IMG/VR virus record: IMGVR_UViG_3300027994_000001
Coordinates: 1-57,775 of that record
DNA from: a virus
Lineage: Duplodnaviria; Heunggongvirae; Uroviricota; Caudoviricetes
Strand: one strand, 5' to 3'
Length of the DNA: 57,775 bases
Within the stretch, counting starts at the first letter, position 1. Every line of letters starts with the position of its first letter. Below the pieces are notes generated by a model. It was not told the origin of the DNA. It worked only from the letters and a program-made list of their open reading frames with translations, and ran no database searches. Shown piece by piece: positions 50,887 through 56,475 of this stretch. The position numbers and the translations under genes are program-made.

Positions 50887-50918
50887 TTTGGTAGATTGAA
50901 AAACAATTTGTATATTTG
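50887..50918 (+). promoter_or_regulatory. Consensus Bacteroidota promoter
   Basis: TTTG (50887-50890), 20-nt spacer, TATATTTG (50911-50918). Confidence 0.85.
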
Positions 50919-50920
50919 CC

Positions 50921-51016
50921 TCGTTGGTTATTCGTTCGAGGTTTAATTAATTAAAAAGAAATTATTGTTACCCCACCTTTTAGGCACTCGAACTGCCCTA
51001 TTGGGTGGGTTTTTAT
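50921..51016 (+). ncRNA. Putative ~95-nt structured small RNA or attenuator leader
   Basis: No ORF between a consensus promoter and a terminator hairpin. The hairpin loop CTCGAAC (50987-50993) is the exact complement of GTTCGAG (50934-50940). Confidence 0.5.
50972..51016 (+). terminator. Intrinsic terminator with extended interrupted stem
   Basis: CCCACC (50972-77) / GGTGGG (51004-09), inner TAGGCA / TGCCCTA, followed by a T-run. Confidence 0.75.
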
Positions 51017-51043
51017 TTAAATGAAAAAATAAATAAAATTTAT

Positions 51044-51075
51044 CTTGCATAATAAAAATAAATAACCTAAATTTA
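51044..51075 (+). promoter_or_regulatory. Weaker promoter-like element for the RNA ligase operon
   Basis: CTTG (51044-47), 20-nt spacer, TAAATTTA (51068-75); one mismatch in each box. Confidence 0.45.
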
Positions 51076-51099
51076 CAAAAAATTAAAAACCAATAAAAT

Positions 51100-52068
51100 A
51101 TGAAAAAGTATAATTCGATTGAACAATTTCGAAACGTAATCAGAAAAGTAAAAGAAAATCACGATTATCAAGGTAAAAATGAGCTAGGAGAGGCAATTTA
51201 TAGTCATTCAACCCCTTACCCGACACTTCAATTTAAAGGCACAGTTAAGATTCATGGAACAAATGCTGCCGTTGTAAAGTATAAAGCAGATGAAAGAATA
51301 GAATATCAGTCAAGAGAGAGAGTTTTATCATTAGAGCAGGATAACGCAAATTTCATGCTTGCAATGTCTAATTTAAATTGGCACAAATTACTGAGAAGAT
51401 TTAACTTTACAGATTATGTTGCAATTTACGGCGAATGGTGTGGAGGAAATATTCAAAAAGGGGTGGCAATTAACGGATTACCTAAAATGTTTATTATTTT
51501 TGGAATTAAGATAGATGATATTTGGATTGAATTGCCTGCGGATTTTAAAGACAATGAGAATAACATTTACAATATTCTACAATTTCCAACTTATGAAATG
51601 GACATTGATTTTAATAACCCAGAACTCTCTCAAAACAAACTTATCGATTTAACTATTAATGTAGAGAATGAGTGTCCTGTCGGAAAATATTTCGGAGTGA
51701 GCGGCATTGGAGAAGGAATTGTGTGGACAAGTGCTGACAATGAAGATTTTAAATTTAAGTCAAAAGGCGAGAAGCACAGCGCATCAAAAGTAAAAACATT
51801 AAATGCAGTTGATACAGAATCATTAGAGGGACTTAAAGGATTTGTTGACTTGGCTGTAACAGAAAATAGATTGGAACAAGGTTTACAGTATTTAGCTGAA
51901 ATGGGATTTAGCTTAGATCAAAAAAGTACAGGCCAGTTTTTAGGATGGATGGTAAAAGACGTAATAAAGGAAGAAACAGATACAATTGTTTCTAATCAAT
52001 TTGATGTTAAAAAAGTTAAATCAGCAGTTAGTAACAAAGCCAGAATTTGGTTTTTAAATAGAGTATAA
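51100..52068 (+). CDS. RNA ligase, Rnl2 family
   Basis: Nucleotidyltransferase motifs I KIHGTN, Ia QSRER, III YGEWCG, IIIa FIIFGI, IV GEGIV, V FKFKSK; helical C-domain. Confidence 0.88.
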   Translation: MKKYNSIEQFRNVIRKVKENHDYQGKNELGEAIYSHSTPYPTLQFKGTVKIHGTNAAVVKYKADERIEYQSRERVLSLEQDNANFMLAMSNLNWHKLLRRFNFTDYVAIYGEWCGGNIQKGVAINGLPKMFIIFGIKIDDIWIELPADFKDNENNIYNILQFPTYEMDIDFNNPELSQNKLIDLTINVENECPVGKYFGVSGIGEGIVWTSADNEDFKFKSKGEKHSASKVKTLNAVDTESLEGLKGFVDLAVTENRLEQGLQYLAEMGFSLDQKSTGQFLGWMVKDVIKEETDTIVSNQFDVKKVKSAVSNKARIWFLNRV

Positions 52069-52069
52069 T

Positions 52070-52876
52070 ATGCCAGACAATACAGCATTATCAACAAGAA
52101 TGAAAGAAAACTACGAAAACCGTAGTAAACAATATTTAACAAGACGAACACCAACAATCATTAGATTAGATGGGAAGGCATTTCACACTTGGACTAAAGG
52201 ACTTGAGAAACCTTTTGATGAAGGGCTTATTGAAGACATGCAGGAAACTACTAAGTTTTTGTGCCAGAATATACAAGGCTGTAAGATGGGGTATACTCAA
52301 TCCGATGAAATCACTTTAGTTTTAACTGACTATGATACATTTGAAACTTCGGCTTGGTTTGATTATTCGGTACAGAAAATGGTCTCTATTTCAGCTTCAA
52401 TAGCTACGGCTAAGTTCAACCAATTGAGGATAATCAGGAGTATAACTGAGCATGAATACGGTGGAATGGCTACAGCTGATGAAATAGATGAAATTAATCT
52501 AGCTTTTTTTGATTCACGCGTATTCCAGATTCCCGAAAAAGAAGAAGTAGTTAACTGCTTAATCTGGAGACAAAGAGATGCGGAGAAAAATTCAATAGCA
52601 ATGCTGGCTCAATCTTTATACTCTCACTCAGAACTTTATAAAAAGAATGGAAACGATATGCAGGAGATGTGTTTTCAAAAAGGACATAATTGGAATGACT
52701 TACATTTCTCTAAAAAACGAGGGAGTTTTATTATAAAGAATATTTATGTAAATGGACAATTATATAAGAATGATAACCCAGAAGCATTAAAAACGGAAAC
52801 AGTAAGAAGCAAGTGGGAGATTATTGAAACTCCATTTTTTGGAAAAGATAGAAACTCAATTTTAGATTTAATTTAA
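52070..52876 (+). CDS. thg1: tRNA(His) guanylyltransferase family 3'-5' polymerase (Thg1/TLP)
   Basis: IIRLDGKAFH, YTQSDEITL, FDSR, WRQRDA, NWNDL: the catalytic Asp residues and family motifs are present. Confidence 0.93.
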   Translation: MPDNTALSTRMKENYENRSKQYLTRRTPTIIRLDGKAFHTWTKGLEKPFDEGLIEDMQETTKFLCQNIQGCKMGYTQSDEITLVLTDYDTFETSAWFDYSVQKMVSISASIATAKFNQLRIIRSITEHEYGGMATADEIDEINLAFFDSRVFQIPEKEEVVNCLIWRQRDAEKNSIAMLAQSLYSHSELYKKNGNDMQEMCFQKGHNWNDLHFSKKRGSFIIKNIYVNGQLYKNDNPEALKTETVRSKWEIIETPFFGKDRNSILDLI

Positions 52877-52882
52877 AAAATA

Positions 52883-53497
52883 ATGATAAATAACTTACAA
52901 ATAATATTACCTTTACTTAGTTTTGAATCAAAAGACGATTTTTATTATCTTCAAATCCTGCAACGTAAGAAAGAGAACCCCGAATTGGGAAGTAACAGCA
53001 GAGTAATCAAAAACTACTATATCAGTTCGGTGGAGTATTTAACAGAAAGATATCCCGAAATCATTAAATTATGCGAAGTGTTCAATGCCCGCGCCTCAAT
53101 AAGACTAAATAAAAGAAGTTATAAAAAAGTAGGAATGAAGGCTATGGTTAATCTTGCAAATACAATGATGAATGAAGAATACAGTTTCTTAAAAGCATCA
53201 TATGACAGAGCTTGCGGATTAGGACACAATGATAAAAATAAAACTTGGATTGTAGATATAGATAAAGATGAAGTTATTTGGTTAGAGCAGATTATAAACT
53301 CTATTCAATCATCTCAGCCAGAAGGAAATAAAATAGTAGCCCAAATACCAAGTAAAACAGGTATGCATCTAATTACAAAGCCTTTTAATACTTTAGATTT
53401 TAAAGACAGATTTACTGAGGAATTAACCGAGTATAAAATGAGTTATGTTGAACTAGAGATACATAAAGATAACCCGACTAATTTATATATTCCATGA
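52883..53497 (+). CDS. Putative AEP-fold (primase-polymerase-like) nucleotidyltransferase
   Basis: WIVDID (motif I hhhDhD), SKTGMH (motif II sxxGxH), IHKD (motif III). Confidence 0.5.
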   Translation: MINNLQIILPLLSFESKDDFYYLQILQRKKENPELGSNSRVIKNYYISSVEYLTERYPEIIKLCEVFNARASIRLNKRSYKKVGMKAMVNLANTMMNEEYSFLKASYDRACGLGHNDKNKTWIVDIDKDEVIWLEQIINSIQSSQPEGNKIVAQIPSKTGMHLITKPFNTLDFKDRFTEELTEYKMSYVELEIHKDNPTNLYIP

Positions 53498-53916
53498 AAG
53501 ACACACCATTTGAAGTAATAGAAGCACAATGTTATTTATGGGCTAAAAACCCAGTGGGAGGAGATACATACAATAGAATAGTTAAAACAGTGGAAAAATA
53601 TCCAGAGTATTTTCCTTGGGAAACTAAGTATAATTCTATTGATGAAAGTGTGCATAAGGCTTATGAAAATGAGAAAGAACTTCTTTATAAATCTTTTTTC
53701 CCGACAACACCAATGGATATTCAACCAGGAGAGGGAATTTATGCTTGGTCAAAACGTATAAGTGCAGAAGTAATTAGTTATAATAAGCCTGTAGATTGGG
53801 ACGAACTTTTTAAAAATATAAAGAACAGGCAAGAAAGACATGAAGATTTCTCAAAAGCTAAAAAGAAATTGTGGATTAAACACTATAAAAAATTTAATTT
53901 AAAATATCAGGAATAA
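53494..53916 (+). CDS. Hypothetical protein (140 aa)
   Basis: Coupled ORF (ATGA overlap). Confidence 0.6.
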   Translation: MKDTPFEVIEAQCYLWAKNPVGGDTYNRIVKTVEKYPEYFPWETKYNSIDESVHKAYENEKELLYKSFFPTTPMDIQPGEGIYAWSKRISAEVISYNKPVDWDELFKNIKNRQERHEDFSKAKKKLWIKHYKKFNLKYQE

Positions 53917-54497
53917 TGGAACAAATAATTAAAAAAGCTTGGAAAATATCTGTAAAAGATTTAAGTGAGCCTTGGTATTTTGAAGATGTTTACGTAAATT
54001 GTGAAACAAGAGGAGAAGCCAGAAGTCAAGGACTACAAGAAATGTGTAATCTCGGCGCGGAAAAGCTAAAAGAATCTCGGTACGACGATACAGATTTGCG
54101 TTACATAGACATCATAGCTCATAGAAGTAAAGATTATGACACTATTTTATTTGAGGGTAAAGAAATGAAACGGCATCAAATAGAAAAACATATTTGGTGT
54201 AAAGAACGTGATCAAAAAGCTTATGAGTTGACTGTTTCTAATCCAAATGATTTAGCTGTTGTCTATGCAGGAGTTTATGGTAGTTATTGGGGTTCTAATC
54301 GCAGTGGTTATTCTGATTCAATTGTTTTTGCCGGAAAATACGATGTAAGGGAGGCTTATGATATTGTAAGAGGAAGCGAATACAGCAGACAAGAAACTGT
54401 CAAACTTTTGAATGTAGAGAAATTTAATTTAGGTATTGAGGAAAAAATAGAAAAATTACAAAAAGAAATTGATAGATTAAAATCTCGTAAAATATAA
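53916..54497 (+). CDS. Hypothetical phage protein (193 aa)
   Basis: Coupled ORF; YWGSNRSGY...AGKY...EAY motif. Confidence 0.6.
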   Translation: MEQIIKKAWKISVKDLSEPWYFEDVYVNCETRGEARSQGLQEMCNLGAEKLKESRYDDTDLRYIDIIAHRSKDYDTILFEGKEMKRHQIEKHIWCKERDQKAYELTVSNPNDLAVVYAGVYGSYWGSNRSGYSDSIVFAGKYDVREAYDIVRGSEYSRQETVKLLNVEKFNLGIEEKIEKLQKEIDRLKSRKI

Positions 54498-55008: not shown

Positions 55009-55228
55009 AGAAATAATTTGGCAGTTGACTAAAGACTATAAACCTGAATATATCTGTGGTTTTGATGATTATCTGCCGGAAGAGGCTGTAAATTTCTGGA
55101 ATAAAATAAAAAAGAAAATCGGTTTAAAATACAAAGTAAAAGAATCAAACAGTTATGGGGCTATTGGCAAAATAGAAACGATAGATGGTAAACAAATTGT
55201 AAGTTATGACATCAAAAGAGATAGATAA
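54992..55228 (+). CDS. Hypothetical protein (78 aa)
   Basis: Overlapping small ORF. Confidence 0.5.
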   Translation: MIQENKEIIWQLTKDYKPEYICGFDDYLPEEAVNFWNKIKKKIGLKYKVKESNSYGAIGKIETIDGKQIVSYDIKRDR

Positions 55229-55751
55229 AGCACTTAGAAGTCATTTCCAAAATAACAGCCGTTACATGGTTTCAAACGTATATCCTTTTGACAGTTATTA
55301 TAAAGAAATTGATTTCTTAGTTGTTAAGGAAAATGGCATAATACTAGATATAGAAATTAAAGTAACACGTGCCGACTTTAAAGCGTATTTCAAGAAAAAG
55401 AAGCATGAAATATTAAGAAACGGCTACATTACTTTAAATCATTTTTCGGCAAGAACAGAAACAACAGGTTTAGTAAGATATGAAGCTGGAGAAAAAATTA
55501 ACATAGATACACCTAATAGATTTTACTTTTGCGTACCTGAAAATTTAATTTCTGTTGATGATCCATTACTTCCTGATTATGCGGGATTACTTTATGTAAC
55601 GGAATTCGGCGGGATAAGAAAAATAAAAGAAGCAAAACTATTACACAAAGAGAAAAAACTAAAAGAAATAGAATCAGTATTATGCAGAAAATTCTATTAC
55701 AGTTACTTAACACTTAAAGAAAAATCAAATGGAAATAACATGGACATATAA
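55206..55751 (+). CDS. MmcB-like PD-(D/E)xK nuclease
   Basis: EIDFLVV...DIEIKVTRADF, NRFYFCVP, YAGLLYV. Confidence 0.75.
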   Translation: MTSKEIDKALRSHFQNNSRYMVSNVYPFDSYYKEIDFLVVKENGIILDIEIKVTRADFKAYFKKKKHEILRNGYITLNHFSARTETTGLVRYEAGEKINIDTPNRFYFCVPENLISVDDPLLPDYAGLLYVTEFGGIRKIKEAKLLHKEKKLKEIESVLCRKFYYSYLTLKEKSNGNNMDI

Positions 55752-56002: not shown

Positions 56003-56132
56003 AGAAGTGTTTGTAAAACATTGTCAGGATCAACTCAAAATACTGGATAAATTTTCAGATGAACATCCTGAATTAGATTTTAGACTAATAGAAATTGCTT
56101 TAGAACTTTTAATTAAAAAGGAGTATGAGTAA
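55980..56132 (+). CDS. 50-aa hypothetical protein (not in the ORF track)
   Basis: MGTGQIHKEVFVKHCQDQLKILDKFSDEHPELDFRLIEIALELLIKKEYE*. Confidence 0.5.
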   Translation: MGTGQIHKEVFVKHCQDQLKILDKFSDEHPELDFRLIEIALELLIKKEYE

Positions 56133-56475
56133 GATAGCGGTCATAGGTAGTAGATCATTTTTAGATTTTAATTTTTTCTCGGCGAAATTAGAGTACTTAC
56201 TTCAAAACACAGAGGAAATAGAGTTTGTATCGGGTGGTGCAATTGGGACAGATAGATTATGCAAAAGGTATGCTGAAGAGAACAATTATAAAATAACTGA
56301 GTTTTTACCTGACTATGAAAAATACTCTGGAAAAGTAGCCCCACTTAAAAGAAACCATCAAATAGTCGAAGCTGCTCAGATGTTAATTGCTTTCACAACA
56401 GGATCAAGTGGAACAGCTTACACAATAAAGCTGGCGGAGAAAAAAGGCATACCAATTAGAATAATAAAAGTATAA
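56125..56475 (+). CDS. SLOG-superfamily (YspA/DUF2493-like) nucleotide-binding protein
   Basis: IAVIGSRSF, VSGGAIGTD, APLKRNHQIV, SSGTAYTIKLA. Confidence 0.85.
   Translation: MSKIAVIGSRSFLDFNFFSAKLEYLLQNTEEIEFVSGGAIGTDRLCKRYAEENNYKITEFLPDYEKYSGKVAPLKRNHQIVEAAQMLIAFTTGSSGTAYTIKLAEKKGIPIRIIKV

Follow-up and report, generated by a model that had tools for sequence, protein, structure and literature searches.

A minimal primase-fold protein family linked by gene neighbourhood to RNA repair in bacteriophages, and its place in a modular ligase and Thg1-like locus

Introduction

The heal-and-seal system of phage T4 is a phage-encoded repair of tRNA cleaved by the host. RNA ligases of the Rnl2 type seal nicks with 3'-OH and 5'-phosphate ends, with a preference for nicks in duplexes, and Thg1-like proteins (TLPs) rebuild 5'-truncated tRNAs through templated 3'-5' addition, for which a template strand is needed. 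LigD joins an archaeo-eukaryotic primase (AEP) polymerase, a phosphoesterase and a ligase, by which broken ends are filled, healed and sealed, and it adds ribonucleotides. Here, we analyse three consecutive genes, encoding an Rnl2-like RNA ligase, a TLP and a 204-aa protein, in the first 57,775 nt (the window) of the complete 138,623-nt virus record IMGVR_UViG_3300027994_000001 (G000), a genome with direct terminal repeats from a phage whose host is probably a member of the Bacteroidota. The third protein belongs to an abundant phage family, referred to below as the AEP-like family, which recurs beside RNA-repair genes and has a predicted primase fold.

Phage RNA-repair operons, neighbourhoods combining Thg1, a ligase and a polynucleotide kinase (PNK), and the role of RlaP, the CCA-adding enzyme and Thg1 as restorers of nucleotides are already known (PMC2904730; PMC7824862). 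Thg1 has been found associated with polynucleotide kinase and RNA ligase genes (PMC2904730), and its sporadic presence in large phages has also been reported (PMC2904730; PMC7824862). RlaP adds 1-2 nucleoside monophosphates to RNA 3'-OH ends, through which tRNA that has been trimmed too far can be sealed again and still function; heavily damaged tRNA is not restored without it (PMC12776372). In the 2021 jumbo-phage survey, RlaP, the CCA-adding enzyme and Thg1 are the only nucleotide-restoring enzymes listed for phage RNA repair (PMC7824862). In AEPs, motif A is defined by two metal-binding carboxylates and motif B by the consensus c+ x s x H, the histidine of which is essential for nucleotide binding (PMC10778844).

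Results

Gene neighbourhoods were compared in two samples. The AEP-anchored sample comprises 84 loci (80 from IMG/VR, 3 from deposited phages and the window itself) and was compiled without the contexts of the relatives P0002-P0019 (77-91% identical), while the Thg1-anchored sample comprises 59 viral loci. Neighbours of the AEP-like gene were clustered, the recurrent clusters were annotated, and profile hidden Markov models built from these clusters were used to score RNA-repair genes. The recurrent co-directional neighbours included a T4-type Pnkp (AAA_33 + HAD_PNKP), found at position +1 in 7 loci, a PF09414 ligase that carries a PHA02142 OB-fold domain at its N terminus, an Rnl1-type ligase (PF09511), a CCA-adding enzyme (PolyA_pol + HD) and a calcineurin-like phosphoesterase. 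Across the 84 loci, RNA-repair genes make up 14.4% of the flanking positions at +-1, 7.9% at +-2, 3.1% at +-3 and ~1% at positions 4-15. Their enrichment at +-1-2 relative to positions at least 4 genes away corresponds to an odds ratio of 12.7, with a p value of ~1e-17 that is inflated by relatedness between loci. When the loci were collapsed at 70% identity, 16 out of 52 lineages had an RNA-repair neighbour within two genes, and every RNA-repair partner (42 out of 42) was encoded on the same strand as the AEP-like gene.

In L144 and L155, an Rnl2-like ligase gene is followed directly by the AEP-like gene, without Thg1, and a single 3.2-kb contig encodes an in-frame fusion of an Rnl2-like ligase to the AEP-like protein (P0271, 469 aa), which counts as weak evidence. 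The gene that follows the AEP-like gene in Cellulophaga phage phi17:2 carries the annotation tRNA nucleotidyltransferase. The AEP-like protein pairs with three different ligase families, and the ligase family found in the window pairs with a TLP, with an AEP-like protein or with both. Gene context can offer no stronger evidence than partners that vary while their function stays the same. The AEP-like family is strongly linked to RNA repair. In phi17:2, a cultured phage (L001:6001-8509, gp033-gp031), the AEP-like gene is placed after a homologue of the 1,920-aa structural gene of the window and followed by the tRNA nucleotidyltransferase gene and a gene for a protein with a PARP-type (PF00644) catalytic domain; this phage offers a culturable setting for work on the family.

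The 204-aa protein falls in PHROG 14949, a group without a functional assignment. Clustering its family at 90% identity gives ~1,000 clusters and at 50% identity 1,637, and the family is 92-100% viral in the ESM Atlas. The deposited phages that carry an AEP-like gene, namely Cellulophaga phage phi17:2, Prevotella Lak phages, Tenacibaculum phage pT24 and a crAss-like phage, all infect Bacteroidota, and a scan of cellular genomes by exact peptide words, which is of low sensitivity, found no relatives. Neither the 204-aa protein nor 60 family members matched any Pfam model, PF24387 and PF09250 included, and these two models have no match anywhere in G000. The 204-aa protein also had no NCBIfam match and no PDB match by sequence, and the family profile gave no PDB match. 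The nearest named cluster in the ESM Atlas is PF24387 'AEP-like', an embedding lead that no profile search confirms.

An AlphaFold model of the 204-aa protein, built from 60 diverse members, reached a pLDDT of 96.7 and a pTM of 0.90. The predicted structure contains a two-module AEP core, in which an N-terminal alpha/beta module is followed by an RRM-like beta-alpha-beta-beta-alpha-beta module. In an exhaustive VIA-align search, a dozen matches extend across the full model, with Z scores of 4.9-7.5 over 123-161 aligned residues, and all of them are AEP or AEP-like; matches confined to residues 121-195 are generic ferredoxin/RRM-like folds. The highest scores were obtained with RepB' (Z 7.5 and 7.4, the best with a root mean square deviation of 3.1 over 128 aligned residues), followed by human PriS (6.3, 161 aligned), the Pyrococcus horikoshii primase (6.2), cyanophage S-2L PrimPol (6.2), LigD-Pol (5.4) and Prim-PolC (4.9). 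Yeast, Tetrahymena and archaeal PriS and an archaeal non-homologous end joining polymerase were also among the full-length matches.

Motif A, D125-I-D127, is placed at the C-terminal end of strand 122-127, the first of the C-terminal module, and motif B, K158-T-G160-M-H162, on strand 160-165, the third; K158-x-G160-x-H162 agrees with c+ x s x H, the motif B consensus in the literature (PMC10778844). Among 148 diverse members, D125 is conserved in 100%, D127, G160 and H162 in 99% each, and K/R158 in 79%. The candidate motif C is position 192 (E192 here), which has hydrophobic flanks on strand 192-194, the fourth; 55% of members have D there and 28% have E (D/E in 83%). This position was preferred to the HxD element, H194-K-D196, where residue 196 is D in 58% and N in 39%. 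In the N-terminal module, N4, R28, K30, R70, N76 and R78 are invariant. At the level of predicted fold and active-site motifs, the AEP call made for this gene in the preliminary description, where it was considered the weakest link, therefore appears right, being borne out by the model, the VIA-align matches and motifs A and B. Of the elements listed there, DxD and the GxH part of SxxGxH are conserved in 99-100% of members, while the aspartate of HxD is present in only 58%.

Several other leads were discarded. A Foldseek search with the product of 52883..53497, one of the checks named in the preliminary description, gave no convincing PDB match, and its best hits, poly(A) polymerase and eIF4E at TM 0.2-0.3, were taken as noise; the AEP fold came from VIA-align. 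A GAF domain match (phmmer, adenylate cyclase 1ykd, E 0.002) is attributed to chance, as the family profile failed to reproduce it and the fold disagrees, and nothing supports the single JGI label 'phosphoglycerate mutase' on member P0078. Apparent tandem copies of the AEP-like gene in L175, L176 and L179 are frameshifted fragments and not paralogues. These genes appear as 2-3 short open reading frames (ORFs) (L175:1995-2579, L176 and L179:4614-5088) and represent either decaying copies or sequencing frameshifts. In the predicted protein P0252 (286 aa), a ribosomal protein L4 domain (residues 17-141) is combined with a part that corresponds to residues 42-171 of the AEP-like family, most likely through a chimeric contig or a gene-calling artefact.

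The preliminary description had presented the ligase, Thg1 and AEP-like genes as a functional triad and had itself named a lack of co-occurrence in other phages as evidence against it. The survey of gene neighbourhoods showed that the three genes are not inherited together as a triad. Among the 84 AEP-anchored loci, Thg1 lies within 8 kb of the AEP-like gene in the window only, and a Rnl2-like ligase is found near the AEP-like gene in a handful; an AEP-like gene within three genes of Thg1 was detected in 1 of the 59 Thg1-anchored loci. The closest Thg1 loci (L085, L086 and L087) have kept the ligase-Thg1 pair and lack the AEP-like gene. Two of them belong to complete sister genomes of G000, namely G001 (L085) and G002 (L086). 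The ligase and Thg1 are both 89% identical in G001, and 93% (split ORF) and 88% identical, respectively, in G002, with no AEP-like gene anywhere in either genome. The complete genome G005 presents the reverse situation, with an AEP-like protein of 71% identity (G005:C1:108358-108966) and neither ligase nor Thg1. The three genes are thus modules gained and lost separately, and there is no obligate triad. G000 and G005 have ~45 genes in common with a mean identity of 38%, well below that of their AEP-like proteins, from which we conclude that the AEP-like gene moves horizontally, and does so between unrelated phages; the 71% value points to recent transfer. The identity of the ligase and Thg1 between G000 and G001 is also well above the average of 64% for these two genomes.

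Comparison with the sister genomes delimits the site of this variation. The conserved 193-aa gene of the window is 71% identical to a 199-aa ORF located directly after Thg1 in L085/G001, with the same arrangement in G002, and its homologues are found in L085, L086, L087 and L099. Since the homologue follows Thg1 directly in G001 and G002, the AEP-like and 140-aa genes (52883-53916) constitute an indel in a variable slot. The 199-aa ORF had been considered as a divergent AEP, a possibility rejected on an hhalign probability of 0.4%. The 140-aa orphan has no family match and no homologue in ~200 loci, and is absent from G001. In G004 (L182), a fragment with a Thg1 of 91% identity, the slot after Thg1 (L182:351-2142, also in L099) contains RlaP (364 aa; PF10127, 1.7e-22) and then a divergent AEP-like gene (236 aa), which aligns with the AEP-like family at an hhalign probability of 75.6%, including the RKK, NxR, DxD and KxGxH elements. 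This paralogue may represent a second subfamily paired with RlaP. RlaP itself was found in 0 of the 84 AEP-anchored loci and in 9 of the 59 Thg1-anchored loci.

The only other lineage with all three genes is L120-L123, where they are clustered more loosely: the stretch from Thg1 to the AEP-like gene, with a ligase and a PNK kinase, fits within 6 kb, and within ~7 kb when a DNA ligase gene is counted as well. On these contigs of 165-175 kb, the gene order (L120:4610-12645, also L121-L123) is ATP-dependent DNA ligase, Thg1, two unknowns, OB-type RNA ligase (456 aa), VWA protein, sigma-70 factor, PNK-type kinase, a small ORF, the AEP-like gene and a 3'-5' exonuclease. The presence of a VWA protein within this RNA-repair cluster recalls Ro/VWA-type repair scaffolds.

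The ligase of the window matches Pfam RNA_ligase PF09414 (1.3e-11; 45 bits against a cut-off of 27 bits) and PHROG 548 'RNA ligase' (6e-57). Its motifs I (K50-I-H-G-T-N), III (E112), IV (E205-G-I-V) and V (K220/K222) are invariant in 6 homologues. As a single sequence, it gave no PDB match. A profile built from the 6 homologues had T4 Rnl2 as its sole significant PDB match (2hvq, E 1.6e-8, 37 bits), with the alignment covering both the nucleotidyltransferase domain (47-144, the motif I-IIIa region) and the C-terminal domain (213-292, aligned to T4 Rnl2 229-299). The Rnl2-specific C-terminal helical domain is therefore predicted to be present, at approximately residues 225-320, and positions 224-312 of TIGR02307 match residues 225-313 at 1.4e-4. 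Since the score against this equivalog model is 21.5 bits against a cut-off of 197, the protein is predicted to be a distant Rnl2-like ligase and not a T4 Rnl2 orthologue. The AlphaFold model of the ligase, based on 6 sequences, was poor (pLDDT 57.8) and was not used for fold searches. In G002, the ligase is split into two ORFs covering residues 1-78 and 71-322 (G002:C1:90499-91463, L086:5031-5998), which may reflect a frameshift or pseudogene or an assembly error.

The second gene matches Thg1 in Pfam (PF04446, 2.5e-28; 99 bits against a cut-off of 29.2 bits) and PHROG 4717 (6e-85). Its best PDB match is the Bacillus thuringiensis TLP 4kgk (2.4e-55), over the full length, and its putative catalytic carboxylates, D34 (R-L-D34-G) and D79/E80 (Q-S-D79-E80), align with their equivalents in that structure. 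Yeast and human Thg1 structures match at 1e-3 to 1e-5, in the N-terminal part only. Given the full-length match to 4kgk and the weak matches to eukaryotic Thg1, we place the protein with the bacterial TLPs; as judged by sequence, it is a TLP of the bacterial tRNA-repair type and not the eukaryotic tRNA-His G-1 enzyme.

The coordinates of the features discussed here are given in Table 1. The window has ~33% G+C and carries nearly all its genes on the + strand. Upstream of the ligase gene is the 1,920-aa structural gene, from which it is separated by a 213-nt spacer. The three genes are consecutive, with spacings of 1 nt and 6 nt between them, as the preliminary description had stated and the ORF list bears out. 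Its suggestion that they head an operon is reasonable, with a terminator-like hairpin and a promoter-like site predicted ahead of the ligase gene. Its identification of the first two genes as an Rnl2-type ligase and Thg1 is upheld by the T4 Rnl2 profile match in both domains and by PF04446, PHROG 4717 and 4kgk, respectively, the Pfam and PHROG matches of both genes being much too strong to arise by chance, and all the motifs that it quoted were found (KIHGTN, EGIV and K in the ligase, RLDG and QSDE in Thg1, and DxD, SxxGxH and HxD in the third protein). The 140-aa gene shares 4 nt with the AEP-like gene, and the series of co-directional + strand genes extends to 56860. Further along the same transcription unit are genes for a 181-aa NERD-like/PHROG 2776 nuclease-type protein (55206-55751) and a 116-aa protein with a YAcAr-type SLOG domain (56125-56475; PF10686, 5.9e-11), the latter, like the NERD-like gene, being of a type associated with biological conflict. 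The jumbo-phage survey ties the YAcAr/SLOG domain class to NAD+/ADP-ribose chemistry (PMC7824862).

Outside the window, G000 encodes a second RNA-repair operon (G000:C1:96061-99305, L084:4062-7306), adjoining a gene for a reverse transcriptase. The sister genome G001 has no part of this block. The preliminary description had noted no end-healing gene next to the triad and had suggested that the third gene might fill this role. As a T4-type Pnkp is encoded at 96-99 kb, together with an Rnl1, such a substitution is unnecessary, and it is also contradicted by the phages in which the AEP-like gene sits beside Pnkp.

Table 1. Features of the ligase, Thg1 and AEP-like locus and of the second RNA-repair operon in G000
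Feature	Position	Strand	Description
Intergenic spacer	50887-51099	+	Terminator-like hairpin, then promoter-like site; putative start of transcription unit; consensus matches only
Terminator-like hairpin	50993-51008	+	Followed by T run; consensus match only
Promoter-like site	51072-51099	+	TTTACA-16-TAAAAT; consensus match only
Rnl2-like ATP-dependent RNA ligase (predicted)	51100-52068	+	322 aa; PF09414, PHROG 548
Bacterial-type TLP (predicted)	52070-52876	+	268 aa; PF04446, PHROG 4717
Minimal AEP-fold protein (predicted)	52883-53497	+	204 aa; PHROG 14949; from model and motifs
Orphan gene	53494-53916	+	140 aa; overlaps stop codon of AEP-like gene
Conserved gene	53916-54497	+	193 aa; PHROG 35347, no assigned function; right edge of variable slot
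T4-type Pnkp	96061-96984	-	307 aa
221-aa protein	within 96061-99305	-	Weak Pol-beta nucleotidyltransferase similarity (HalB/MntA-like)
225-aa protein	within 96061-99305	-	Unassigned
Rnl1-type ligase	98313-99305	-	330 aa

Discussion

Taken as a whole, the locus is, on balance and by a modest degree, probably a modular tRNA-repair cassette, with the Rnl2-like ligase as its hub, a TLP and an AEP-like 3'-end adder as further modules, and end-healing provided in trans. The repaired RNA is most likely tRNA. The ligase would close 3'-OH/5'-phosphate nicks, the TLP would restore lost 5' nucleotides by templated 3'-5' addition, and the 5' kinase and 3' phosphatase activities would be supplied by the Pnkp of the 96-99 kb locus. 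The AEP-like protein may be a metal-dependent nucleotidyltransferase that extends RNA 3'-OH ends, binding the RNA 3' end and an NTP via motifs A and B. It would either copy a template to fill in the end or add only a single nucleotide or a few, and what host nucleases had taken away would be put back in this way before the ligase seals the nick. This would be the task that RlaP carries out elsewhere with another fold, and the TLP would be the counterpart at 5' ends. Where the TLP and the AEP-like protein are both present, filling from both sides would be possible, though not required. The analysis itself shows the identities of the genes, the AEP fold and motifs at the level of the model, the neighbourhood statistics and the pattern of gene presence and absence; for the AEP-like protein, we infer the RNA substrate, the addition of nucleotides at the 3' end and the cooperation with the ligase. 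Only tentatively do we propose the more specific idea that this is an RNA-dedicated phage AEP family, a minimal RNA 3'-end polymerase that, together with the TLP and a ligase for duplex nicks, would rebuild a gap from both sides.

Some observations weigh against this reading. The fold match is moderate (a Z score of 7.5 is in the 'middling' range of VIA-align), Foldseek found no PDB relative of the AEP-like model, no sequence profile joins the family to a named AEP family, and the third catalytic carboxylate is variable (D/E in 83% at position 192). Two thirds of the AEP-like lineages have no recognizable RNA-repair neighbour, some neighbours belong to DNA metabolism (ribonucleotide reductase, DNA ligase and 3'-5' exonuclease), and the commonest neighbour, the calcineurin-like phosphoesterase, is not RNA-specific. 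Moreover, G004 carries RlaP next to the divergent AEP-like gene, which speaks against a plain exchange of one for the other.

Part of this evidence would also suit a protein that is linked to RNA repair without being a polymerase, either processing ends as a phosphoesterase-type enzyme through its DxD/His metal site or serving as a subunit that binds RNA ends and recruits the ligase. A neighbourhood link is an association and not a chemistry, the candidate motif C carboxylate varies, the protein has no accessory domain, its invariant R28, K30, R70 and R78 could hold RNA phosphates, and the adjacency in G004 to RlaP, a proven 3' adder, suggests non-redundant roles. Nevertheless, we regard such a protein as rather unlikely, since motifs A and B, conserved in 99-100% of members, are the nucleotide- and metal-binding elements of AEPs (PMC10778844), a pure scaffold would not need the invariant DxD...H, and a second healer would be redundant where Pnkp or a metallophosphoesterase already supplies end-healing, as one of these often adjoins the AEP-like gene. 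The AEP fold, with the plasmid primase RepB' as best structural match, raises the alternative of a DNA primase or primase-polymerase, active in the replication or repair of phage DNA, whose RNA-repair neighbours would only mean that early genes for nucleic-acid metabolism lie together. An AEP and a ligase can cooperate at DNA ends, as in LigD, the DNA-metabolism neighbours noted above would fit, and G000 has no detectable primase of the DnaG or Prim-Pol type. However, none is detectable in G001, G002 or G005 either, and a complementary pattern of primases between G000 and G001 was looked for and not found. G001 and G002 share the replication-module layout of G000, including an ORF-free gap, with neither a recognizable primase nor an AEP-like gene; because G001 has this same gap and no AEP-like gene, the protein is not the essential primase of this lineage. 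An identity of 71% between genomes averaging 38% is the behaviour of an accessory gene, and the enrichment at +-1-2 concerns the RNA-specific Rnl1, Pnkp and CCA-adding enzyme. There is also no helicase, zinc-finger or helix-bundle partner or fusion, nor were longer forms with such domains found; in PrimPol, primer formation depends on the zinc finger (PMC5934617). A role in DNA priming is thus quite improbable.

The tight spacing of the three genes in the window, on the other hand, invites the interpretation that they are an obligate, co-evolved fill-and-seal triad, in which a gap would be filled by Thg1 on its 5' side and by the AEP on its 3' side, with the AEP also standing in for the end-healing enzyme, before Rnl2 seals. 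The preference of Rnl2 for duplex nicks and the need of TLPs for a template would fit filling from both sides, and L120-L123 also cluster Thg1, a ligase and the AEP-like gene. This is nonetheless very unlikely, because the Thg1-AEP adjacency occurs once in each sample (1/84 and, within three genes, 1/59), Pnkp is encoded elsewhere in G000 and adjoins the AEP-like gene in other phages, and the sister genomes with the ligase and Thg1 alone, together with G005 with the AEP-like gene alone, already refute the obligate form. Least probable of all, to the point of being far-fetched, is a counter-defence enzyme, producing for instance short oligonucleotide decoys or signals and travelling with RNA-repair genes as anti-defence cargo. 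A horizontally moving accessory gene in a variable slot, with the conflict-type YAcAr SLOG (56125-56475) and NERD-like nuclease genes nearby, would be compatible with this, but nothing points to it specifically; the partners are tightly placed, same-strand enzymes of RNA ends, and the direct ligase-AEP pairs and the one fusion favour a shared pathway.

In the literature within reach, no AEP was found placed in an RNA-repair role. Burroughs and Aravind (2016, NAR 44:8525) reportedly described a distinct prim-pol family acting on RNA in RNA-repair-derived systems; if that family and the AEP-like family are the same, theirs would be an earlier computational prediction of a link between AEPs and RNA repair, although the 2021 jumbo-phage survey, a later work of the same group, lists no AEP among the nucleotide-restoring enzymes. 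Within the literature in reach, what is new or as yet unverified is that a very abundant phage family (1,637 clusters at 50%), with neither Pfam model nor annotation, has a predicted primase fold, that it sits where RNA-repair operons usually carry a nucleotide-adding enzyme, and that its partners comprise three ligase families, Pnkp, the CCA-adding enzyme and Thg1. If the AEP-like protein does act on RNA, AEP biochemistry would extend from DNA priming and repair to RNA repair, a compact enzyme of 200 residues would be available for RNA 3'-end extension, and the phage answer to PrrC/RloC-type anticodon nucleases, toxin ribonucleases and Cas13 would have an extra component. With such a role demonstrated, it would be the first enzyme of primase fold known to take part in the repair of RNA, as well as the equivalent of LigD for RNA. 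The family is well defined, abundant and readily testable at the bench, and the presence and absence of modules in the sister phages provide natural knock-outs for asking which host nucleases each module counters.

Comparison with known systems

Among the systems described, the T4 heal-and-seal system resembles G000 most in the T4-type Rnl1/Pnkp operon at 96-99 kb, and differs in having no Thg1-like or AEP-like partner. T4 Rnl2 is the sole PDB relative of the window's ligase, although a distant one, at 37 bits and far below the TIGR02307 cut-off. The bacterial TLPs, such as 4kgk, align with the second gene over its full length; what differs from their usual neighbourhoods is a phage pairing with an Rnl2-like ligase that is kept in sister phages and to which, here, an AEP-like gene has been added.

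The closest functional parallel for the AEP-like protein may be RlaP, a small stand-alone enzyme found beside RNA ligases and Pnkp in RNA-repair operons of phages and bacteria, which is the same kind of position as that of the AEP-like family (PMC12776372; PMC7824862). They differ in fold, Pol-beta in RlaP against a predicted AEP/RRM-like palm, and in that the activity of RlaP has been shown whereas that of the AEP-like protein is predicted; their adjacency in G004 indicates that they need not be equivalent. In structure, the protein can be compared with LigD-Pol, RepB', S-2L PrimPol and Prim-PolC, with which the predicted model shares its two-module AEP architecture as well as the succession of motifs A and B. 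Unlike these stand-alone AEPs, to which it has no sequence-level similarity, the 204-aa protein stops right after the candidate motif C, without the downstream elements and without a helix-bundle or zinc-finger domain. The combination of a ligase, an AEP-like protein and a phosphoesterase or Pnkp would follow the same logic as LigD, except that LigD works together with a DNA ligase at double-strand breaks in DNA, while the partners here are RNA ligases, Pnkp, the CCA-adding enzyme and Thg1.

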